Below are positions 3,182 to 24,914 of a stretch of 47,519 bases of DNA, piece after piece. Position 1 is the first letter of the stretch; each line of letters starts with the position of its first letter. Origin of the DNA: a virus (Duplodnaviria; Caudoviricetes). Below the pieces are notes generated by a model that worked only from the letters and a program-made list of their open reading frames with translations, was not told the DNA's origin and made no database searches. The stretch lies in the IMG/VR virus record IMGVR_UViG_3300032234_000260, positions 1-47,519 of that record. The stretch is one strand, 5' to 3'. A program made the position numbers and the translations under genes.

Positions 3182-4693
3182 TTACCACACCCATTTACTA
3201 TAAAAAGCATTATCTCTGTCAAGGAAATTAGAATCCAAAGACAGAATGTCACCCGGATTATTACCTGCAAACTTACCGCCAACAAGCTGAGACATATCCA
3301 AACCTGCATACATTGCAGCATCCAATCTGTCAGGAGACTTCAAACCTCTAGAACGCATGTCATCTTTAGATTCAATCTGAATAGAACCCTTAGCACTAAA
3401 CTTGTATTTAATGACCATCATCTCGTCAGTCAAATCCTTGTCAGCCATATCGATATCAATAAAGCCGTTAAGCATCTTTTCGCGCAAGCTATCGTAACCT
3501 GCAGCCCTAGCGTTAAGCCACCTAGTGTTATCTGGGCTAGCCGCAGAACCTACAATGCTGATAACAATATACCTATCTTCACACATGCTTGCAAGCATAT
3601 CTACGATAGGCGCACCCAAACCTGTGCCGTCAACGCGAACCTCAGAAGCCCCAAGAGCAATAGCAGTCTCATGAATTCTGTTAGCAGACTCAACTGCATT
3701 AGTCTTAGTCCAAGTAGCAACATGGCGCAAACGCCCACCCCTATTAGAATAGATCACAGAATCGTCCTCACCAAAACGCGCAACGTCAACGCCAAGCACA
3801 ACAGGGATTGTCATATCCTCAATAATCTCGCAGTCAATCGCCTTATCTAAAGAATGCTGGCTAAAGAAAGTAGTATCGTCTTCCTCAGGGAACTCACCCA
3901 AAATCTTAGACTTGTATCTAGCTGAATCCTCACCCCAAGCAATCTTCTGGCGCTCAACCCAAGTAGGTTGAATCAGAAGCGGCTTCAACTCTTCCGGGAC
4001 GACCTCACCTGTGAAATTCGGCGTGTCAAAAGCCGAAATATGAATCTTATTCCACGTATCATCCTCTCGAAAAATACGATGAAACTCAGTCCCACGACGG
4101 TCAGGGTTACCAATAGCAAGGACGCGGCTATCAGCAGTAGTAGTAACAGCTTCAGCGGCAGTGTATAAATCAACAGGGATACCTCCGGCTTCATCAAGAA
4201 CAACAAAAACAAAACGTCTGTGAATACCTTGGAAGGCAGACACGATATCGGTGTCAGCAGGGCGACGACCAAACCCAATCAAAGTACCATACTGGTCATC
4301 AAGCTTCCACTCCTCAGACTGGTTAATGTGACCCGGCAAACTAAAACCATTAATAGCAGCAAGCTTGTGATTATCCTTCAACTCACGAAACAACACACGC
4401 GCAATCTGAGGGTAAGTAGGCGCAGAACAAATCAAAGCAACCTCATACGGATCATGCACTGCAATCCACCAAGCCCCAAGAATACCTGCAACCGCAGACT
4501 TACCCGCACCGTTACAACTCACAACAGCAGTGTGCGTATTCTCAACAAGGCTACGCCCAATCTCAGCCTGCTTACTCCACATGTGCTTACCCAACACATC
4601 ACTAGCCCAAGCAACTGGATCATTCGCATAAATGCTATTCTTAGAGCGCTTACGCAAATCAGCAATCACACCATCAATAACATTATCAATCAT
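3182..4693 (-). CDS. terL: Terminase large subunit
   Basis: Walker A SCNGAGKS, Walker B VVLDEA, IGNP motif, nuclease motifs LGVDVARFGEDDS and SPDRLDA. Start chosen from SD AGAGGAG. Confidence 0.95.
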   Translation of the reverse strand: MIDNVIDGVIADLRKRSKNSIYANDPVAWASDVLGKHMWSKQAEIGRSLVENTHTAVVSCNGAGKSAVAGILGAWWIAVHDPYEVALICSAPTYPQIARVLFRELKDNHKLAAINGFSLPGHINQSEEWKLDDQYGTLIGFGRRPADTDIVSAFQGIHRRFVFVVLDEAGGIPVDLYTAAEAVTTTADSRVLAIGNPDRRGTEFHRIFREDDTWNKIHISAFDTPNFTGEVVPEELKPLLIQPTWVERQKIAWGEDSARYKSKILGEFPEEDDTTFFSQHSLDKAIDCEIIEDMTIPVVLGVDVARFGEDDSVIYSNRGGRLRHVATWTKTNAVESANRIHETAIALGASEVRVDGTGLGAPIVDMLASMCEDRYIVISIVGSAASPDNTRWLNARAAGYDSLREKMLNGFIDIDMADKDLTDEMMVIKYKFSAKGSIQIESKDDMRSRGLKSPDRLDAAMYAGLDMSQLVGGKFAGNNPGDILSLDSNFLDRDNAFYSKWVW

Positions 4694-4892
4694 CTTCATC
4701 TCCTCTAAAACCAATACGCAACTCAGGATACGTGAAGTCAGTCACAGTCTCAATGCTGCTAGTCACAGCCAACCCTCCACCTTGAGGCTTAGGACACTTA
4801 TGGCTCTCACGCCACTGATTCAGTAGTTGCAATTCGTTATCGCGCTCAGCAGAAAAAGAAGCACCACATGCACAAGACTCAGAGACGCTCAT
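4686..4892 (-). CDS. Small hypothetical protein (CxC and HxC motifs)
   Basis: 68 aa from ATG 4892 (MSVSESCACGASF...), overlapping both neighbouring genes. Confidence 0.55.
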   Translation of the reverse strand: MSVSESCACGASFSAERDNELQLLNQWRESHKCPKPQGGGLAVTSSIETVTDFTYPELRIGFRGDEDD

Positions 4893-8318: not shown

Positions 8319-9821
8319 TTAAGCAACCCGATGGGTTACTTTTTCTACTGACTTTGAATCTGTTTTTGTACCCGGTACTACTAGACCCGGTGTCTCCGAC
8401 GCTAGGAAGTAGTTGTACTTACCGAATACATTGACTAGGTCATAGAAGTCCATGACTTTGAAGAATGACTGCATTGTTGCGCCACGCTTTGCTGTCTCAA
8501 TTAGACCACGAACTACCCACGCGAAGAATGTAATTTTATCTGCATTGTAGTTGCAATCCATTTGACGGAACTCTATCGTACCACGATCGTTTAATAGATG
8601 CGATACGTTTACAGCCCTAGGCTTCTCTGCTTTGAGTTTTGGATCCTTTTTGCTCAAAGCAAATCTGATGTGTTCTATCGACACCCTGCGTGCATACTGC
8701 ACATCATTGCGTCCACATAGAACTGAGAAGAGACCTTCTAGTCTCTTGTATGTTGCCATGACTGTACCGACTTGCATAGTCGTTAAGTCTCCGGCCCATA
8801 CGTGAATGTGTGTACCTGCAGTGTCATTCATCTCTGCACCCTCGTCTAATAGCTTCTGGCACAAGTCATACATACCATTATGCTTTACACGTTGGATACC
8901 GCCTGTTGAACGATACTCTGCTGACTCAGCATCTGTGCATTCGCCGCTACCACAGTGATCTGGGCTGTCGTTGTAGTCGCTACAATTATCACAGTTGCAT
9001 TCGTGATAAGTACAATCGCTACAATAACATTCACAGTCTTCACTACCTTCGTATGAACGCAGTGAACCGTCATCACCTTTGTCGATTCCTGAGAACGGCA
9101 ATGGCTCTACACCTTTGCAGTCTGGAGATTCTATCTCGAATCCCCATGTGCGCGATGCTAGACCGTTTGACGGAAGTTGATTGCTTAGAGTTTTGATTTG
9201 CTCCTCTATGCGAAGCGTGAACTCTCTACCGCCTGATGGACCTTCGGTAAGGATTTTGTTTAGACCTGACCCTTGCTCTGTTTCATTCTTGACGATATTG
9301 ACACGCGCTTGCACAATCTCAACCCATCTTTGCAGACTGAATTTAGCATTTTTGAGTTCATCAATGCTTGGTCTGACTTCTGCGAACTTTCTCAGAACAA
9401 ACATAGCTGCAGTTTCTCTTGTATCATCATAGCCATATGAGCTAACGCCTCTAGCCCACATAACATGCTGATTAGAACCTGCACCTGCTGGTCTTGTCTC
9501 TGTGTCGTTTGCATATGCATTCAGCATTCCCTTCCAATAGATTAGCCTCAATCTATTTTGCGGGTTGGTTAGAAACTCTAACCCTCCAAATGATGTTTCA
9601 CCATATTCCCAATTACCATATGTTTGGTCGAGTAGCGGACCTTCGATGATGAATGTATCTGAGATTGCTACCGGGAAATCTGGAAAGAACTCATCCTTGA
9701 TTTCCTTTATTACTGTGTAAGGCATACGTTCGTAACCCATATCTGGTACGAATACCCTACGTTCGTCTATCTTTTGATAGAACTCTAGTGCTTGTTCTCT
9801 TAATTCAGAGTATGTTTGCAT
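8319..9821 (-). CDS. Putative amidoligase (COOH-NH2 ligase type 2, glutamine synthetase-like fold)
   Basis: Motifs TWGFEIE, DDGSL, EYRS, AGTHIHV and GTIEFRQ occur in the expected order. Confidence 0.85.
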   Translation of the reverse strand: MQTYSELREQALEFYQKIDERRVFVPDMGYERMPYTVIKEIKDEFFPDFPVAISDTFIIEGPLLDQTYGNWEYGETSFGGLEFLTNPQNRLRLIYWKGMLNAYANDTETRPAGAGSNQHVMWARGVSSYGYDDTRETAAMFVLRKFAEVRPSIDELKNAKFSLQRWVEIVQARVNIVKNETEQGSGLNKILTEGPSGGREFTLRIEEQIKTLSNQLPSNGLASRTWGFEIESPDCKGVEPLPFSGIDKGDDGSLRSYEGSEDCECYCSDCTYHECNCDNCSDYNDSPDHCGSGECTDAESAEYRSTGGIQRVKHNGMYDLCQKLLDEGAEMNDTAGTHIHVWAGDLTTMQVGTVMATYKRLEGLFSVLCGRNDVQYARRVSIEHIRFALSKKDPKLKAEKPRAVNVSHLLNDRGTIEFRQMDCNYNADKITFFAWVVRGLIETAKRGATMQSFFKVMDFYDLVNVFGKYNYFLASETPGLVVPGTKTDSKSVEKVTHRVA

Positions 9822-9992
9822 GTTGTTAGTTTCCTTTAACTATTAACAAAATGTTTTATTTGTACAGTCAATTGCGACTGCGATTGGAAGCATTACACCT
9901 ACTAAGATGAATACTGAAATTACTGTATACAAAATGAAGTTATCTAGCCTGTTTCCATCTATATCACGTTCCTTACTATATCTAATCGAATT

Positions 9993-10058
9993 GCCCGCAG
10001 CTGAGACACAACCCCGGGTGTTGCGCCGCGGTGTTGGGGGTTGTGGCGATGCGCGGGC
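9993..10058 (-). promoter_or_regulatory. 66-nt GC-rich two-stem hairpin, copy 3
   Basis: Outer stem GCCCGC/GCGGGC, inner stem CACAACCCC/GGGGTTGTG. Confidence 0.75.
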
Positions 10059-10144
10059 GGGGGTCTGGGGGGCACCCCCAGTACTATGATTGATCTCGTT
10101 TAGAGTCGATTTTCTATAATAGACTATAGAACCATATAGGATGG

Positions 10145-10173
10145 CTTATACCACAAAAGTGCCCGGATGTCAA
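10145..10173 (-). promoter_or_regulatory. Leftward sigma70/SigA-type promoter
   Basis: TTGACA-17 nt-TATAAG with TGTGG extended -10. Confidence 0.8.
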
Positions 10174-10188
10174 ATAGGATGGCACAAC

Positions 10189-10218
10189 TTGACAAAGTGC
10201 CGGGATCTGTGGTACATT
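10189..10218 (+). promoter_or_regulatory. Rightward sigma70/SigA-type promoter
   Basis: TTGACA-18 nt-TACATT with TGTGG extended -10. Confidence 0.75.
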
Positions 10219-10284
10219 GTATTACATAGGCAAATAGCCAACCCCCACAAAGGGAAAAAAATTCAAAAAGTTTTGAGAAAATGC

Positions 10285-10313
10285 TTGCGTTCGAGGTGTT
10301 TTTCCTGTAAACT
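10285..10313 (+). promoter_or_regulatory. Second rightward promoter candidate
   Basis: TTGCGT-17 nt-TAAACT upstream of the amidotransferase. Confidence 0.55.
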
Positions 10314-10365
10314 GATTATACAAACAAGAGATGGCTCGGATGAGCCGGAATAGGAAACCGATATT

Positions 10366-11454
10366 ATGTGTGGAATTGCTGGATTTAGTTTATCAAAAAA
10401 TTCTAGAATAAACCCTAGAAAGTTATCAAATGCATTGCTTTGTGGCATCGAGAGTCGTGGTAATCAAGCGGCTGGTTATGCTTGGCAAAATGGTGTGTCT
10501 TCAGGTATGTATAAGAGTAATGTTCGTGGTTCTAGTTTATCCCTAAAGGGTATGCCTAGAGATGCTGACACTGTTATCTTGCATACTCGCTATGCTACGC
10601 ATGGCTCCGTAAATGTTATGGCAAATAATCACCCTGTTGTTTCGCCTGACAAGAATATTGCTTTAGTGCACAATGGCGTTATTTATAATCACAAGCGTGT
10701 TCGTGCTGAGTTGCCTTATACTTTGCCAGAGGTCGATACTAGTGTTATTCCTGCTATTCTGCAAAAGTATGGCGTTGAGCGTTTAGATATGCTTGATGGC
10801 GATGCGTCTATTGCGTGGCTTGATGAGCGTGAGAATGGCACTTTGCGTGTCGGTCGTTTCTCTCATTCTCCTTTGTTTGTTGCACAGACAGAGGATGGCA
10901 GTCTTGTGTTTGCGTCGACAGAGAAAATCTTGCTCGAGGCTCTAAAGCGTGTTCGTCTCAGTGCCGTATATTTGCAACAGGTTGCCGAGAAAGCCCTTTA
11001 TACAGTCCGTCAGGGTCGTATTGACGCATCTGAGACTATGCCTGAGACTAGCCCGGAGTTCGAGGAGAAGTTGTCTTATTCTGCTTATGGCAAGTATCGT
11101 GGTATGACTGCTGGTGGCAAACTCAATAACTCTTCTGTTGTTGGTTATGGTTATGCTGATGGTTTAGATTACTCATCTGATCTTTATGAGGAATTAGATA
11201 GTGAAGAGTTCGAGGACTTTTTGACTAACTATTATGAGACTGATGGTTTCTTCTACGACTATTCTGGAACATTCTTGGGAGATATCGAGTCGATGCGTGA
11301 CATCTTCGAGGATTACCGATACAACGAGTATTGGATGGGCAAGGATGCTAACTATAATCCTTGGACTTTCACCGAAGGTACTGCCAAGAATTACGAGGCT
11401 CCACGCAGGTCTTCTCCTCGCGATTGGTATTGGAATGACAGTGAGATTTTTTAG
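10366..11454 (+). CDS. Class II (Ntn) glutamine amidotransferase
   Basis: N-terminal MCGIAG nucleophile, RG..AAG, LHTRYATHG, NNHP, HNGVIYN and VDTSVI, with an acidic Tyr-rich tail. Confidence 0.92.
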   Translation: MCGIAGFSLSKNSRINPRKLSNALLCGIESRGNQAAGYAWQNGVSSGMYKSNVRGSSLSLKGMPRDADTVILHTRYATHGSVNVMANNHPVVSPDKNIALVHNGVIYNHKRVRAELPYTLPEVDTSVIPAILQKYGVERLDMLDGDASIAWLDERENGTLRVGRFSHSPLFVAQTEDGSLVFASTEKILLEALKRVRLSAVYLQQVAEKALYTVRQGRIDASETMPETSPEFEEKLSYSAYGKYRGMTAGGKLNNSSVVGYGYADGLDYSSDLYEELDSEEFEDFLTNYYETDGFFYDYSGTFLGDIESMRDIFEDYRYNEYWMGKDANYNPWTFTEGTAKNYEAPRRSSPRDWYWNDSEIF

Positions 11455-11725: not shown

Positions 11726-11745
11726 TCCAAACAAAGGAGAGCCAC

Positions 11746-18250: not shown

Positions 18251-18664
18251 ATGGCTAGACCAAAGGGTATAACCCCAGTAAAAGAAAAGATAAAGCCGAT
18301 AAGGGGCGAAAGCCACACTGCGCTTTTTACATACATTCACACAGGCATAAAGTCTGAGGCTGTTCAGCCGATGATTGCATTGCATGACGCTATGGATAAA
18401 GCCATTGAATCAAAAGAGTATTGGCCTTGCCTAAACAACCCATACTTCTACACAGAATACGATAGTCTGGGTTTTGAAGATGAGGAGGGCAGGGCTCTAT
18501 ACAGACCAATAACAGTAGACCAAGCGGAGATGCTGTGCCATGGATGCCCACTGCTAAAGCAGTGCTATGATTTTGCAGTTGCAAATGAAGAGCGATACGG
18601 CATCTGGGGTGGCATTGACTTCTCAGCAGATTACGACGAACTATTCCCGGAGGACATGGAATGA
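18251..18664 (+). CDS. whiB: WhiB-family transcription factor
   Basis: C...A..LCHGCPLLKQC..FA..N.ERYGIWGG. Confidence 0.9.
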   Translation: MARPKGITPVKEKIKPIRGESHTALFTYIHTGIKSEAVQPMIALHDAMDKAIESKEYWPCLNNPYFYTEYDSLGFEDEEGRALYRPITVDQAEMLCHGCPLLKQCYDFAVANEERYGIWGGIDFSADYDELFPEDME

Positions 18665-19383
18665 TTACAGATAACAGAATTAGAGAAATGGCTCTAGGCT
18701 TGTTCAAGCAAGAGAGCGAACGCGACAAGCAAAAGAAAGTCGGAGCATCTGACTTCTCTGATCCTTGTGAATACCACTTAGCCAAAAAGCTTATGGGGCA
18801 TCCACAGGAAGAGTTCAAGTATTATCTTGGTGCAAAGATTGGAACTGCGACGCATGAGTTCCTAGAAAAGCGCATTGAGACAGTTGACCTTGATGAGTAT
18901 CCGGAGTTTGCTAACGCAGTTATCGAGGAAACTATCTTCCTTGGCGAACTCGAGGGTTACGGCACAATCAAGTCTAAGCCTGACCTTGTGCTAGTAGACG
19001 GCAAGCATTTAGTCGACTGGAAGACCTCTAAGCGTGATAAGTCTAGGCAACTGCAAGATGTTGTCCATGGCCTCGCTAAGGACACCAAGGTGGCAAAGGA
19101 GGCCGCTTATAGCCTCAAGAAGTACTATGCTCAGGCACAGATTTATGCTTGGGGATTGAACAACTCTGGCACCGAGATCGATGGTTGTTCACTTGTGTTT
19201 ATCAACCGCGATGGAACTTATGACCCTGATGTGTGGACTTGGACATTTGCTTACGACGAGGAATTTGCTCTAAGCATGTGGTCTAGGCTAGAACGCATCT
19301 GGTCTGAGTTGCAGTCCGGAAAAGAAATCGAATCGTTCGAGCGCGAGCCAGAATGTTTCAACTGTAAAGTGTTTGAGGCCTAG
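18661..19383 (+). CDS. Cas4-like PD-(D/E)XK exonuclease
   Basis: GASD...C, GTATHE, PD...LVDWKT, QxxxY and C-terminal CFNC. Confidence 0.85.
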   Translation: MITDNRIREMALGLFKQESERDKQKKVGASDFSDPCEYHLAKKLMGHPQEEFKYYLGAKIGTATHEFLEKRIETVDLDEYPEFANAVIEETIFLGELEGYGTIKSKPDLVLVDGKHLVDWKTSKRDKSRQLQDVVHGLAKDTKVAKEAAYSLKKYYAQAQIYAWGLNNSGTEIDGCSLVFINRDGTYDPDVWTWTFAYDEEFALSMWSRLERIWSELQSGKEIESFEREPECFNCKVFEA

Positions 19384-19386
19384 GAG

Positions 19387-19617
19387 GTGAATATGGATAA
19401 AAGAATAATTTTTATTACGAGTGGGTGGATTGTGTTTGCAATGCGTTTCGGATTTGCCGGTGTTATGGTATGGGCAAGTACTGATGTCACGAATCAAGCA
19501 CTGCAGTTCACCTTGATAGGTCTTGCTGCAATTTTCTTTGGAAATGCAATCAGCCAGATAATCAAGATGTACGACTTCCTGAAAAAGGTCGACACGCTGA
19601 ATTTGACAATTGACTAG
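19387..19617 (+). CDS. Small membrane protein
   Basis: Two hydrophobic segments, AGGAGG SD (start may be the internal ATG). Confidence 0.6.
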   Translation: MNMDKRIIFITSGWIVFAMRFGFAGVMVWASTDVTNQALQFTLIGLAAIFFGNAISQIIKMYDFLKKVDTLNLTID

Positions 19618-19630
19618 AATATGGTATACT
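19603..19630 (+). promoter_or_regulatory. Promoter for the recombination/replication genes
   Basis: TTGACA-16 nt-TATACT with TGG before the -10. Confidence 0.7.
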
Positions 19631-19650: not shown

Positions 19651-20379
19651 ATGACAAACTTTCCAGCATTGCCTTTCGAAAAGGCAATCAAAAAGGCCTC
19701 GGCCCTAAACGCACCAAAAACCATTCTTCTCTACGGAGACCCAAAGCGTGGTAAGTCATGGCTAGCGGCATCTGCCAGCGAACTAGCAGATCTCTCTCCA
19801 GTGCTCTTCATCGACACTGAGGGTGGCTCTTCTGCGATTGCTCGCGACTGGCCTGATGTGAATGTTGTGGATGGCGACACTCACGAAAAGCTAGACATCA
19901 TCATCAACTCGTTGCTATCTCAGGAACACCAGTACAAGACTGTCATTATCGACACTCTTGGTGTTGCGATGGATAGAGCAGAAAAGTTCTTTGGTGACAA
20001 GCCTGAGAACCGCAACAACAAGTTTGGTAAGTGGGGCGACCTAAAGGAGTGGATTACGGATATGACCCGTAAACTACACTCTGCTCCATTCCTTTCAATT
20101 CTTGTAGCACACGCACAGGACGAGAAAGACGACCAAACCGGTGCTGTGAAGACAGTGCCAATGCTACCGGGTTCTGCAAAGAACACACTGCCTGCAATTC
20201 CAGACATCATCGGCTATATGACTGCCGAGGCTGATGGCAACGGAGGTATCAACCGCGTCCTATACATGCAATCGTCAGAGCGCTTAGTGTCGGGCAACCG
20301 CTTTGGACTACCTGCTAAAATGGTAGACCCAAGCATCAAAAAAATAATCACATCAATTCCACAAGGAGGAACCAAATAA
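19651..20379 (+). CDS. AAA_24 / Sak4-like ATPase
   Basis: LLYGDPKRGKS, FIDTEGG, TVIIDT, LVAH and DIIGYM. Confidence 0.85.
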   Translation: MTNFPALPFEKAIKKASALNAPKTILLYGDPKRGKSWLAASASELADLSPVLFIDTEGGSSAIARDWPDVNVVDGDTHEKLDIIINSLLSQEHQYKTVIIDTLGVAMDRAEKFFGDKPENRNNKFGKWGDLKEWITDMTRKLHSAPFLSILVAHAQDEKDDQTGAVKTVPMLPGSAKNTLPAIPDIIGYMTAEADGNGGINRVLYMQSSERLVSGNRFGLPAKMVDPSIKKIITSIPQGGTK

Positions 20380-20852
20380 TGAGTAGTCTAAACTTCTCAG
20401 CTGACGCGTTTGAATCGTCAGGCTCATATTCACCAGTGCCAGCAGGCACTTACAACGCAACAATCTACGAGGTAAAGATTGTTCAGGTCAAGTCTGGCGA
20501 AAACGCTGGCAAGGATCAGTTCAATGTTCAGTTCCGCATCTCAGATGGGCAGTACGAGAACCGTCGCCTATTCACCTACATTCCTCTATACGCTGGTAAG
20601 GCGCAGTGGAAAGCTCTGGCATTCTTCAAGGCACTTGGCTACGAGCCAAAGCCAAACGAGCCATTCCAGATTCCAACTCCTGCAGACCTAGGTGGCAAGC
20701 CTATTGGTGTAAAGGTTACGGTTGTGCAAGACCAGAATGGTGGCGACGACAACAATGTCTCTGGCTTTTCCAGCCTAAAGGTTTCTGACGCAGTTCAGAA
20801 CCTGACATCAATCCTTGGTGCAACACCGACTAACAACTCTTCTATCTGGTAA
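20379..20852 (+). CDS. DUF669-like ssDNA-binding protein
   Basis: PVPAGTYNATI, G.YENRRLF and FFKALG, adjacent to the Sak4-like ATPase. Confidence 0.75.
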   Translation: MSSLNFSADAFESSGSYSPVPAGTYNATIYEVKIVQVKSGENAGKDQFNVQFRISDGQYENRRLFTYIPLYAGKAQWKALAFFKALGYEPKPNEPFQIPTPADLGGKPIGVKVTVVQDQNGGDDNNVSGFSSLKVSDAVQNLTSILGATPTNNSSIW

Positions 20853-20874
20853 TAATTTTCCAGTAGAAATGGGC

Positions 20875-20902
20875 AATCCTGAGCATGATTCAAAACTGCT
20901 CA
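20875..20902 (+). ncRNA. Compact H-type pseudoknot candidate
   Basis: AATC/GATT and TGAGCA/TGCTCA are interleaved, with a CAAAAC linker. Confidence 0.5.
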
Positions 20903-20905
20903 CAA

Positions 20906-20973
20906 GCCCCCACTGGTGTTTAGCGTTTCGTCTCCTTTCGCTAAAGATAAGTTCGATTCTTATCCGGGGCACC
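20906..20973 (+). ncRNA. tRNA-like RNA with an anti-SD loop
   Basis: Terminal stem GCCCC/GGGGC followed by ACC, T-arm ATAAG-TTCGATT-CTTAT, central stem TTTAGCG/CGCTAAA with loop TTTCGTCTCCTTT, no D-stem. Confidence 0.65.
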
Positions 20974-20976
20974 GTA

Positions 20977-21056
20977 GGGCCTGAAATGGTGTCGATTGCT
21001 CGTCAAAGCCACAAGTTGGAGCGAGTAAGACCACAGTTCAATTCTGTGCAGGTCCA
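20977..21056 (+). ncRNA. Mini-tmRNA (tRNA-like domain only)
   Basis: Acceptor GGGCCTG/CAGGTCC-A with G3.U70, stemless D-loop AAATGGTGTCGA, helix TTGCTCGT/GCGAGTAA, GAC linker, T-arm CACAG-TTCAATT-CTGTG. Confidence 0.8.
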
Positions 21057-21085
21057 CAAATAAAAACTGAATGAAAGGAGGATAA

Positions 21086-23281
21086 GTGAATACAAAAGAT
21101 TTTTTGGAGACAATCTTAGGTAGTAGCGCAGGTTATGCAACAATCGTAACTAAAGACGCTAAAGGTGTCCCGACTGTTCAGAAGTTTTTCAGCTATCCAG
21201 ATGAGTTAGATGAGATGGCAGAATACGCCATCGCCCACAAAGAAGAAGATGTTTACTTCTCACCAATTGTGTATTACGAGCAGAGACGCATTCGCGAGAA
21301 CGCAAAGTCTGTTGCGGTAGTTTATTCTGATGCAGATACTTGCAACCCAGAAAACTTTAGGATTACACCATCTATTGTTGTAGAGACTTCAAAAGACAGG
21401 TGGCATGCATACTGGGTGCTAGACGCATCTTCAGAACCTAACAGGGTTGCCATGCTGGCTAAGCAGATTGCATACGCACACCGCGAGCAGGGCTGTGATG
21501 TCTCCGGCTGGAACCCAACTAAACTACTTCGTGTCGCTGACACAAGCAATCTAAAGTACGATTCTTCTCAGCCTGTTGTAGCGACTACTAATGGCTTGAT
21601 TTACTCTATCGAAGAGATTGAAAAGGCTTATGCTGATGTAGCGGTTGACAAGGTGTTAGAGCCTAGCAATGACCCACTACCAGAGATTACATCAGATGTG
21701 ATGTCTGTGCTAGCAAAGATCTCCAGCAATAAGGAAGTTCTTTCGCTATACATTGACGAGCCAACCCCTAACGCAGATTTGTCTAAGATGCTGTGGAAGA
21801 TGGAGATGGAGTTATTCCGTCAAGGCTTGACTGCTGAAGAAGTTTTTGTCGTAGCAAAACATGCAAAGTGCAACAAGTACCACTCACCAAATAGACCTAG
21901 ACGCTTTGACGCTGATGGAGATCTTTGGCGTGAAGTGCTTAGGGCTAGAGATAGTTTTATCGCTAACAGTGCAAACCCAGAACCAATTGAGGACATCGAG
22001 GCTGATGAAGAAACTCGCAAGGTTGACTTTTTATCCGCCGAGGAGCGTGAATATGTAGCGAACACTCGCACATTTATTGACGACTATGTTGACTGGGCTC
22101 AGAAGAAAACTGATGGTGCTGTTGAATACCAGATTGCTGGTGCGTTTACGATTCTATCTTCTGCATTCTCCGACATTGGATGTGCTGCTCCTAAGTACGG
22201 CAAGATGGGCTTGAATCTCTGGTTCATGCTTTTGGGTGAAACAACTCGTAGCCGTAAATCCACAAGCCGTAACCTAATGCTAAGAATGCTTACTGCATAC
22301 GAAAAGTATGTTGGCTACCAGATTGACATTGGTTCTAACGCAACCGGTGAGGCGCTTGTAAAGCACTTATCAGGTCGCGATAAAATGACATCACTGTTCC
22401 ACCGAGATGAGGTGCAGGGTTTGTTCCGAGAGTTTGTGACAAAGACTTACATGGCTGCAGCTGCTGACCAATACACAGAACTTTACGATGGTAAAGTCCC
22501 TGTAATGTTGCGTTCTACTGGCGCACAGAACGGTGTAAAGGCTTTGCAGACTGAGCGAGCAGAAACAAACTTCATCATGTATCTGATGGGTATCACCAGC
22601 AAGGTTGCTGAGATTCTAACTGTGGACTACTTCCGCTCCGGTTTCTTGGCTCGTTTTATCTATGTAGTGGCTGATGCACCTGAGCGCTCAAGAGAGAGCG
22701 AAGATCTTGCACAGGCAAGCGAGCATGAAACCATTGTGCGTGACGATGAGATGGAGCGCATTATCCGTTCAGTTTACGACAGTGCGCTGTGGTGGCAGAA
22801 AAAGGGTGGCGTGTTCCCTAGACCAATCTTCTTGACTGATGAGGCTCTAAGCCGATTCAACGCGTTCAAGTGGGAGATGGGTAACTTTACTAACGGACAC
22901 CCAAATGAGGAGTCTATCGAGCCATCTCGCCAGCGTCTAGCCCTATCTGTGTGGAAGTGTGCAGTGCTACTAGCCCTGTATGACCGCTCAGAAAAGGTTG
23001 AGACCCAACACCTAGCTATTGCTATTCACTATGCTGAGGGCTGGTTCAAGAACCTAATTCGCATGGCTGGTGCTATCTCAGCGTCAGAATGGCAGAGAGA
23101 TGTTGATGGGCTTGAGGCGGTAATCCTTTCAAAGGGTGGGCGCATGCGTTACGAAGAGGCGTACAAAAAGTTCAGCAACAAGCGTAAGCGCGAGTTTGAT
23201 GAAATGGTTGATGCACTGCGTTCGCAAGCTAGACTAAAAGTATTTGTAGAGGGCAGTAAGACATTTTTGGAGTTGATTTAA
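21086..23281 (+). CDS. DNA primase (RepB-like) fused to helicase-like domain (DUF3987-like)
   Basis: DVYF, YSDAD, VETS..RWHAYW and LLRVADT.NLKY in the N-terminus. GETTRSRKST, HRDE and SGFLARF in the C-terminus. Confidence 0.85.
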   Translation: MNTKDFLETILGSSAGYATIVTKDAKGVPTVQKFFSYPDELDEMAEYAIAHKEEDVYFSPIVYYEQRRIRENAKSVAVVYSDADTCNPENFRITPSIVVETSKDRWHAYWVLDASSEPNRVAMLAKQIAYAHREQGCDVSGWNPTKLLRVADTSNLKYDSSQPVVATTNGLIYSIEEIEKAYADVAVDKVLEPSNDPLPEITSDVMSVLAKISSNKEVLSLYIDEPTPNADLSKMLWKMEMELFRQGLTAEEVFVVAKHAKCNKYHSPNRPRRFDADGDLWREVLRARDSFIANSANPEPIEDIEADEETRKVDFLSAEEREYVANTRTFIDDYVDWAQKKTDGAVEYQIAGAFTILSSAFSDIGCAAPKYGKMGLNLWFMLLGETTRSRKSTSRNLMLRMLTAYEKYVGYQIDIGSNATGEALVKHLSGRDKMTSLFHRDEVQGLFREFVTKTYMAAAADQYTELYDGKVPVMLRSTGAQNGVKALQTERAETNFIMYLMGITSKVAEILTVDYFRSGFLARFIYVVADAPERSRESEDLAQASEHETIVRDDEMERIIRSVYDSALWWQKKGGVFPRPIFLTDEALSRFNAFKWEMGNFTNGHPNEESIEPSRQRLALSVWKCAVLLALYDRSEKVETQHLAIAIHYAEGWFKNLIRMAGAISASEWQRDVDGLEAVILSKGGRMRYEEAYKKFSNKRKREFDEMVDALRSQARLKVFVEGSKTFLELI

Positions 23282-24302: not shown

Positions 24303-24474
24303 AAAGAAAAAAGAAATGACCATTGAAGAATGGTACGAGATTGGCAGAATTAACAACTGGTGCAGTGAAGTAGTGTGCTACTCGCATGACCCAATCGATC
24401 TTACAGAGGAAGAACAAGATGCATTTGACGAAGGATTTGACGATTGCATACCAATAGTTCGCCTGTGGGCGTAA
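24295..24474 (+). CDS. Hypothetical protein
   Basis: EEW...G...W...VC..HD....T.EE..........C..IVRL pattern. Confidence 0.55.
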   Translation: MFKKKKEMTIEEWYEIGRINNWCSEVVCYSHDPIDLTEEEQDAFDEGFDDCIPIVRLWA

Positions 24475-24914
24475 GCAACATACTTTCAATTGATCCGGGT
24501 GGAACTACTGGTATCGCTATCGTTTCTTTTTCCGACGATTTGGAGCCAGTGGTTTCCCATTACGAGCAGGTGCCAAATGGTTTAGCTGGTTTTATAGGGT
24601 GGTATAAAAACAATGAGCACCTTACTTGGGATGTAATTGTGTGCGAAAACTTCACGCTTAGGCAGAATGTAAAGTTTCCAGATCTTTCACCTGTGTACAT
24701 TATCGGAGCCTTAGAGGCTTTTGAGTCGCCTAGAGAGATAATCTACCAATCACCTTCTCAAAAGCACTTGTGCGACGATAAAAGGCTGAAAACCATGAAA
24801 ATGCACAAACCGGGCAATGGGCACGCAAATGATGCAATTAGACACGCTATAATATATCTTAGGAATAAAAAACACATGCCAACGCTTATGCTTGGCTGGA
24901 AACCAGAAGAGTAG
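24465..24914 (+). CDS. RuvC-like Holliday junction resolvase
   Basis: ILSIDPGGTTGIA, IVCENF and HANDAIRH. Start is uncertain. Confidence 0.8.
   Translation: MGVSNILSIDPGGTTGIAIVSFSDDLEPVVSHYEQVPNGLAGFIGWYKNNEHLTWDVIVCENFTLRQNVKFPDLSPVYIIGALEAFESPREIIYQSPSQKHLCDDKRLKTMKMHKPGNGHANDAIRHAIIYLRNKKHMPTLMLGWKPEE

Follow-up and report, generated by a model that had tools for sequence, protein, structure and literature searches.

Antisense small RNAs with C/U-rich loops include cuckoo/alpha-r14 and LhrC. In MALAT1 a triple helix that protects the 3′ end is followed by the tRNA-like mascRNA unit, which is cut by RNase P, and in engineered tRNA-scaffold cassettes the tRNA frame carries a foreign arm in the anticodon position. 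The tRNA-like domain of tmRNA has a long D-loop ending in UCGA and a 3-nt GAC linker, which make up the SmpB site. RoxS/RsaE of B. subtilis exposes a pyrimidine loop directed against G-rich leaders or Shine-Dalgarno (SD) sequences, and the outcome can be repression or 5′-end protection (PMC5419742). YrlA of M. smegmatis, a noncoding RNA that mimics tRNA, is cut by RNase P and receives CCA (PMC4201824). Among phages, mycobacteriophage DS6A encodes a ‘TLD only’ tmRNA (PMC4131195), and T4 both silences its early mRNAs at GGAG SDs with the RegB endonuclease and produces two small RNAs of unknown role, RNAC and RNAD, from its tRNA region (PMC3014915).

The window analysed here, 47,519 nucleotides of IMG/VR record IMGVR_UViG_3300032234_000260, is a 47.5-kb tailed-phage genome of 44% GC. 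A PHROGs scan of its proteins showed the minus strand to encode terminase, portal, tail and lysis functions and the plus strand to carry a replication block of helicase, WhiB, Cas4-like exonuclease, Sak4, SSB and primase; divergent amidoligase and glutamine amidotransferase genes occupy 8319–11454. The nearest cultured primases, 26–38% identical, include those of Arthrobacter, Curtobacterium and Clavibacter phages, which together with the WhiB gene suggests an actinobacterial host. Within the replication block the Cas4-like exonuclease gene (18661–19383) is followed by a sigma-70-type promoter-like site (19603–19630, plus strand; TTGACA-16-TATACT with TG), the Sak4-like ssDNA-annealing protein gene (19651–20379), the SSB-like gene (DUF669; 20379–20852) and a gene for a DNA primase(-helicase) of 731 aa (21086–23281; phrog_10514, E 4e-161), all on the plus strand. 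Judged by consensus match only (11 of 12 positions, with two such sites found against 2.5 expected in shuffles), the promoter-like site likely drives sak4, ssb, the RNA described below and primase. The spacer between SSB, which ends at 20852, and primase, which starts at 21086, measures 233 nt and holds three folds in series: a pseudoknot (20875–20902), a tRNA-shaped element without a D-stem (20906–20973) and a mini-tmRNA (20977–21059).

The 5′ acceptor strand of the element, GCCCCCA (20906–20912, plus strand, as are all its parts), forms five firm pairs, GCCCC (20906–20910) with GGGGC (20966–20970), while positions 6 and 7 are mismatched (6-67, C.C; 7-66, A.C). A short single strand, CTGGTG (20913–20918), replaces the D-arm and contains a conserved GG (20915–16); across relatives G11 is invariant and T9 and G10 are kept in at least 90%. 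The anticodon-arm position is taken by a middle hairpin (20919–20945) with a 7-bp stem (20919–25/20939–45) and a 13-nt loop, TTTCGTCTCCTTT (20926–38), which carries CUCCUUU and is predicted to be unpaired (0.88–1.0 per base). There follow a T-arm, ATAAG/TTCGATT/CTTAT (20947–20963; stem 20947–51/20959–63), and the 3′ acceptor strand CCGGGGC with discriminator A20971 and CC at 20972–73 (20964–20973). The next base is G; CCA is therefore not encoded, and the predicted mature RNA comprises 20906–20971 with CCA added. The T-loop and the D-loop GG of tRNA are elbow residues recognised by RNase P and RNase Z (PMC4810234), and by analogy the GG of the short strand is the predicted elbow partner of the T-loop. 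An earlier, sequence-only reading had described the canonical T-arm, the missing D-stem and the 7-bp stem with its 13-nt loop just as they were found; its terminal stem followed by ACC is also present, but the 3′ end reads ACCG and the stem has just five firm pairs. By itself the fold of the element is modest (−20 kcal/mol, z −2.7; 3 of 200 shuffles were equally good), and the case for its reality rests on conservation and covariation rather than on folding energy.

Relatives were gathered via SSB and primase. The 235 sequences examined were the window and 234 loci, and those with SSB and primase in order yielded 133 distinct spacers, every one of which contains the element under a loose rule applied without negative control. 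A covariance model gave one strong match per genome in 16 genomes, mostly members of the training set, and matched 10 of 10 further genomes, one of which has a second copy. In 43 sequences pairing held in 90% of acceptor and T-stem cells, and double changes numbered 115 where shuffles had 32; slid registers reached just 32–52%. The arms of the middle stem pair at −7.6 kcal/mol with their own partners and at −3.1 kcal/mol when swapped (z −18, 58 clusters). The T-loop and the GG of the short strand are kept across the family. By these sequence comparisons the element is a real, uncatalogued RNA family of uncultured phages with a well-supported frame. None of the cultured phages Amigo, Nonagon, CN1A and Jojan60, whose primases are related, was matched by the family model, and blastn of the spacer against cultured phages returned only short matches of 19–37 nt, nine of ten of them over the pseudoknot.

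Acceptor pairing is relaxed, with pair 7-66 present in 22 of 97 members and pair 6-67 in 48 of 97, and in most of 27 further members it appears, as read by eye, one base shorter. A 7-bp acceptor has been described as a major RNase P determinant (PMC4201824), and the relaxed acceptor is a caution for RNase P cutting of the element; it also speaks against a tRNA used in decoding. Downstream of the discriminator the bases resemble those of real CCA-less tRNAs in the same spacers (C74, then variable), and ACCA is encoded in 16 of the 133.

ARAGORN and Rfam made no calls anywhere in the window, in line with the expectation that no canonical tRNA would be called over the element. With E up to 10, Rfam gave only a weak permuted-tmRNA match, on the neighbouring mini-tmRNA; in 18 related loci it gave no match over the element. 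ARAGORN found tRNAs in 45 of 131 spacers, none of them overlapping the element. Compared with the canonical tRNA (RF00005), the D-stem and the 7-nt anticodon loop on a 5-bp stem are absent, the loop being 13 nt here and varying in length among relatives; the acceptor falls short of 7 bp, and the 5-bp T-stem, a T-loop of the TTCRANY type and the D-loop GG are present. Pair 3-70 is C-G in 53 of 58 clusters, T-A in the other 5 and never G.U, and the element is therefore not a tmRNA domain; the long D-loop ending in UCGA and the GAC linker are missing from it and present in its neighbour at 20977–21059. A decayed tRNA, an unusual one that still works, or a fragment of tmRNA would account for the canonical T-loop, G1-C72, A73 and a position at the head of tRNA clusters, but not for the missing D-stem, a long loop of variable length without anticodon register, the lack of any member called by ARAGORN or Rfam, or retention in all 133 spacers with compensatory changes. 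Such readings, among them decay from an ordinary tRNA, which the earlier reading had named as an outcome that would refute it, are largely refuted by the sequence record and seem to us very improbable. The YrlA model had no match at E up to 10 in 20800–21100 and none at the gathering score in the 18 related loci, and no Ro60 (TROVE) gene was present among 30 window proteins, flanking genes included, scanned against PHROGs. Membership of the cuckoo/alpha-r14 group was rejected: the element has a single loop on a tRNA frame rather than repeated hairpins, and no Rfam match.

Three nucleotides upstream of the element lies a small H-type pseudoknot formed by AATC/GATT and TGAGCA/TGCTCA (20875–20902, plus strand). 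A pseudoknot was found within 11 nt upstream of the element in 115 of 133 spacers and in 12 of 665 shuffles; it shows clear compensatory changes, has no Rfam match and constitutes a separate family. Pseudoknots of this kind also precede the first tRNA in phage Amigo and a tRNA in another contig, which suggests that here the fold caps and protects the 3′ end of the SSB mRNA after a tRNA-type cut. In L002/L003 about 250 nt separate pseudoknot and element.

The mini-tmRNA (20977–21059, plus strand), which begins 3 nt past the element, consists of a tRNA-like domain only, with G3.U70 and a GAC linker and without an mRNA-like domain. The two had been likened to a tRNA operon. The 3-nt spacing is as claimed, but this neighbour is rare, its pattern occurring in six spacers only and not in the closest relative (L001), while the usual neighbour is the pseudoknot. 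An operon link as a conserved feature was rejected; the mini-tmRNA is an accessory neighbour and the link incidental. Stenotrophomonas virus Jojan60 has a similar unit ahead of its primase (L086, ~1886–1969), and one in L351 reaches the Rfam tmRNA score. The SSB-primase spacer expands to as much as about 1 kb in L002/L003, L005, L057, L058, L060–L064 and L071–L073, and the expanded spacers carry tRNA-Asn, -Thr and -Trp and several unannotated structured segments. Minimal tRNA-like units of 46–50 nt, made up of acceptor, GG strand and T-arm with the middle arm absent or tiny, were seen in L109 (~2498), L110 (~1244), L117 (~12987) and L085 (~1926–1974); two such units directly precede a TTGACA promoter-like box. 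Minimal units lacking both loop and D-stem are found in genomes of the family and also ahead of the primase gene in Clavibacter phage CN1A; the frame can therefore have a job without the loop.

An unpaired C/U-rich loop complementary to ribosome-binding regions, the mark of small RNAs with anti-SD loops, is present in the element. Its predicted target is the primase SD, GAAAGGAGG (21073–21081, plus strand), in which GAAAGGAG pairs over 8 bp with CUCCUUUC at 20932–20939. The full loop complement, AAAGGAGACGAAA, is absent elsewhere in the window, and perfect matches to the CUCC core reach 8 nt at most there; among relatives the median length of a perfect loop-leader duplex is 8 bp. Of 133 loops, 128 retain CUCC and 105 contain TCCTT, so that the predicted conservation of the loop in homologues is borne out, and the flanks vary in step with the primase leader. 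A candidate start of the terminase large subunit at 4693 has a leader (4694–4706, minus strand) that pairs with the whole 13-nt loop, including three G.U pairs, at −16.8 kcal/mol. This site is among the best in the window, but the 13-bp fit is not kept in relatives (z 0.04, 17 genomes), and the terminase leader was rejected as a conserved target.

Loops were compared with the leaders of their own phage and of others. In an initial comparison of 43 loops the own-pair z values were −7.1 for primase, −1.5 for SSB, −1.9 for Sak4 and −3.1 for the exonuclease. The main test used 115 distinct loop-leader pairs, one per cluster, grouped into 58 clusters at 85% and 28 at 75%. At the two levels the median z for primase was −7.4 and −4.6, the clusters still being related; it was −4.4 and −3.7 for the exonuclease, −2.0 and −1.3 for Sak4, and −0.8 and −1.0 for SSB. 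Primase outscored SSB in 96 of the 115 pairs. A match is seen too in the portion of the primase leader that lies over 14 nt upstream of the start (z 6.5, against 0.0 for SSB), though in some short leaders this portion includes the SD. Two GGAG boxes are present in 33 of 115 primase leaders and in none of 115 SSB leaders. The primase match holds where at least 150 nt, often with tRNAs, intervene (z −4.5; 24 loci, 13 clusters). These comparisons show a loop selective for the primase and exonuclease leaders over those of SSB and Sak4.

The sister-pair test, which is least open to shared ancestry, was less clear-cut. A first independent version gave 8:6 with three ties, a null result, and later pairs at three identity cut-offs gave 21:10 (sign p 0.035, Wilcoxon 0.011), 18:11 (p 0.13) and 12:9 (p 0.33), with SSB scoring 15:7 at the strictest. 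The evidence for correlated change of loop and primase leader, strong at the level of clusters and marginal in sister pairs, is thus good but not conclusive. Across 27 genomes and 32 gene families the lowest z values belonged to the exonuclease (−3.3), primase (−3.1; p 0.002, which just misses correction for 32 tests), the ORF at 24444 (−2.5) and helicase (−2.2). This ORF (24444–24914), whose leader thus ranks third, is of unknown function in PHROGs and has an N-terminal IDPG motif, which we take to resemble that of RuvC-fold resolvases. On the opposite strand none of 18 families passed z −1.9 in the 27 genomes. When sites were ranked using crude gene calls, that of primase came first in 1 of 16 genomes and within the top six in 10; in the window it was 19th of 70.

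AAAGGAG sites had been noted near 11733, 11917 and 21075. They are present, starting at 11733, 11916 and 21074, but are three of eight occurrences on the plus strand; the genes at 11733 and 11917, with too few orthologues, were left out of the own-phage match test. The proposal that the loop is directed against ribosome-binding sites holds in so far as the loop co-varies with the primase leader (the 21075 site) and, in second place, with that of the exonuclease, but it does not extend to every AAAGGAG site. A general block of all such sites is not supported: the leaders of SSB, Sak4 and structural genes show little or no own-phage match, and none of the 18 opposite-strand families has a clear one.

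Natural variants depart from the common pattern in several ways. In L340/L341 CUCC is missing, yet by eye the loop fits its own unusual AAGGAGAGAGA leader through G.U pairs. Three members (L381, L388 and L389) have lost the anti-SD loop and kept the frame. In L349, L351 and L354 the best site lies upstream of the SD, with 9–10 bp against 5 bp at the SD. The second copy in genome G022 (C1:32268–32343, minus strand; L499) lies elsewhere in the genome, downstream of a promoter-like site and of a hairpin whose loop is C-rich, and bears a GU-rich loop on the same frame. The duplex of that loop with its own next leader has an energy of −20.2 kcal/mol, a value that 24 of 7008 windows also reach, in one low-complexity case noticed post hoc; the pairing involves the 5′ part of the leader and leaves the SD free. 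The upstream sites of this copy and of L349/L351/L354 fit protection as well as repression. A sub-clade with a longer middle arm (L008, L018, L021, L024, L025, L029, L031, L343 and L402) has a second pyrimidine bulge, CUCUCCU, that fits its AGGAGA primase SD.

We read the element, which is usually present in a single copy, with a probability of about 0.5 as an antisense RNA that dampens primase translation by covering the primase ribosome-binding site. The region would be co-transcribed as sak4-ssb-pseudoknot-RNA-(tRNAs)-primase. When the uncut transcript of the window is folded, the loop pairs with the primase SD, and action may thus begin in cis, the loop gripping the leader before any cut. 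That such pairing is sterically impossible was considered and dropped: the linker without a D-stem could span the gap, and folding predicts the cis pairing. Host RNase P and RNase Z would then cleave at the frame, in the same way as at the CCA-less tRNAs nearby, to give a pseudoknot-capped SSB mRNA, a stable RNA of ~66–75 nt and a primase mRNA with a leader of ~30 nt; the RNA is probably matured by tRNA-processing enzymes. The released RNA would build up and keep dampening translation of primase and probably of the exonuclease, the match to which lies upstream of the promoter-like site and points to action in trans as well. The predicted outcome is that a single operon keeps the catalytic replication enzymes low and SSB and recombinase high. 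Processing, stability and the sign of the effect, repression or 5′-end protection, are inferred.

The frame might instead be a processing signal and nothing else, a cut mark in the manner of mascRNA that splits the SSB and primase messages while the pseudoknot shields the 3′ end upstream, the loop match then stemming from ancestry and clade-wide SD habits. The pseudoknot immediately upstream in most spacers, the loopless minimal units in the same genomes and before the CN1A primase, the three members without the loop motif and the marginal sister-pair tests all suit this account. It does not explain why CUCC is so widely kept in the loops even where ordinary tRNAs would supply the cuts, nor why the loop matches primase and exonuclease in preference to SSB, with a match that reaches upstream of the SD, and we consider it unlikely, though to be reckoned with. 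Should processing alone be the role, the element would still be an uncatalogued, well-supported RNA family.

If the sign of the effect were reversed, the released RNA would pair near the bare 5′ end of the primase mRNA, block 5′–3′ decay by RNase J, an enzyme present in Actinobacteria, and raise primase output. The leader beyond the last tRNA-like 3′ end is indeed short (median 32 nt), in 32 of 47 adjacent cases the best site starts 0–10 nt past the discriminator, the upstream GGAG box matches its own loop (z 3.6, 17 clusters) and outdoes the SD in L349, L351 and L354, and the G022 copy is predicted to bind the 5′ part of its leader; RoxS on yflS is a precedent (PMC5419742). In 84 of 115 leaders, however, the best site lies over the SD and ends within 10 nt of the start codon (ties being assigned to the downstream site), which favours occlusion, and a second box is present in fewer than a third; a guard of the 5′ end is in our view improbable. 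Still more doubtful is that the loop mimics the tail of 16S rRNA, as a decoy for a nuclease or other protein that recognises the anti-SD, such as a MazF-mt3-like toxin, or as a broad mask of SD-led host mRNAs. The sequence CACCTCC, which we take to be the context of the core in the 16S tail, is found in 0 of 133 loops, the flanking bases track the primase leader, and the core is missing in L340/L341 and in the G022 copy. What speaks for mimicry is the frequency of TCCTT, the finding that in 16 genomes the loop fits same-strand genes of its own phage as a group (z −4.1) and not opposite-strand genes (z −0.1), and the cleavage by MazF-mt3 of the 16S anti-SD and of UCCUU in 23S rRNA (PMC6101614).

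Pattern scans of unrelated phages revealed compact look-alikes of the same D-stemless tRNA shape with UCUCCUU loops: two stand ahead of likely scaffold genes, one of these in a prophage of Alloscardovia macacae (L177, identical to L247 and L260) and the other in L197, and the rest are L272, L281, L284 and L285. An SD-like word with 5–7 matching bases follows in five of the six, as judged partly by eye, and none is near L284. The look-alikes were picked by eye without covariation support and scored weakly with the family model where it was run. The descriptor is loose: the anti-SD word gave matches in 6 of 19 non-family sequences, a shuffled control word in 2 of 22, and two of those six as well as both controls resemble ordinary tRNAs or poor fits. 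The first pattern scan returned mostly tRNA-Val genes, 38 of its 119 loci belonging to the family; a scan of GTDB genomes returned four loci, one of them a prophage look-alike. Related structured segments in L265, L275 and L278, with TCTCCTTTC and a GGTTCGATTCC hairpin, do not fit the tRNA-like descriptor and are possibly another RNA family. It is conceivable, and we put it forward tentatively as something we would sooner doubt than accept, that the D-stemless frame is a programmable antisense device of one widespread class, its swappable loop tuned to the leader of the next gene. The tRNA enzymes would excise the frame, and translation of the next gene would be gated by processing and then by accumulation of the RNA. 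The members proposed are the primase copy, the GU-loop copy of G022 and the look-alikes L177/L247, L197, L272, L281 and L285.

A full-text literature search, with most subscription journals beyond its reach, found no description of the family. One study presents 10,006 viral candidate RNAs and predicts 8,495 candidate RNAs from IMG/VR (PMC10690425); a search of its text and part of its supplements for six contig ids and four domain names returned nothing relevant, and the family may be among these candidates unnamed. The accessible parts of two further papers deal with other irregular tRNAs (PMC5389517) and with Y RNA only (PMC7824862). Precedents thus exist for the parts, namely anti-SD small RNAs, tRNA mimics and tRNA-type processing signals, and no described family was found that joins them.

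The exposed pyrimidine loop is shared with RoxS/RsaE (PMC5419742). The element differs from RoxS/RsaE, cuckoo/alpha-r14 and LhrC in that its loop is single, stands on a tRNA frame and lies within the operon of its own predicted target, and it has no Rfam match. The TLD-only tmRNA of DS6A is likewise a phage RNA with an acceptor, a T-arm and a stemless D-loop (PMC4131195), and the neighbour at 20977–21059 is of that type; in the element G3.U70, the long D-loop and the GAC linker are all absent, and an anti-SD loop is present instead. YrlA and related Y RNAs have D and T stem-loops, a Ro60-binding module, a permuted order and a Ro60 gene nearby (PMC4201824), whereas the element has tRNA-like order, free ends and no match to the YrlA model. 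MALAT1 with mascRNA shows the same layout of a fold followed by a tRNA-like unit, but is eukaryotic and without an antisense loop. If the proposed mechanism is true, it would give a testable role to those tRNA-like units of phage tRNA clusters that ARAGORN and Rfam leave uncalled. Pairs of the predicted target and compensating leaders are already available in nature. The engineered scaffold cassettes, which are man-made, would under this mechanism have a natural, phage-encoded counterpart. The setting of protein ratios in a phage replication operon by RNA only would likewise parallel, in function, the action of T4 RegB, which is a protein nuclease.
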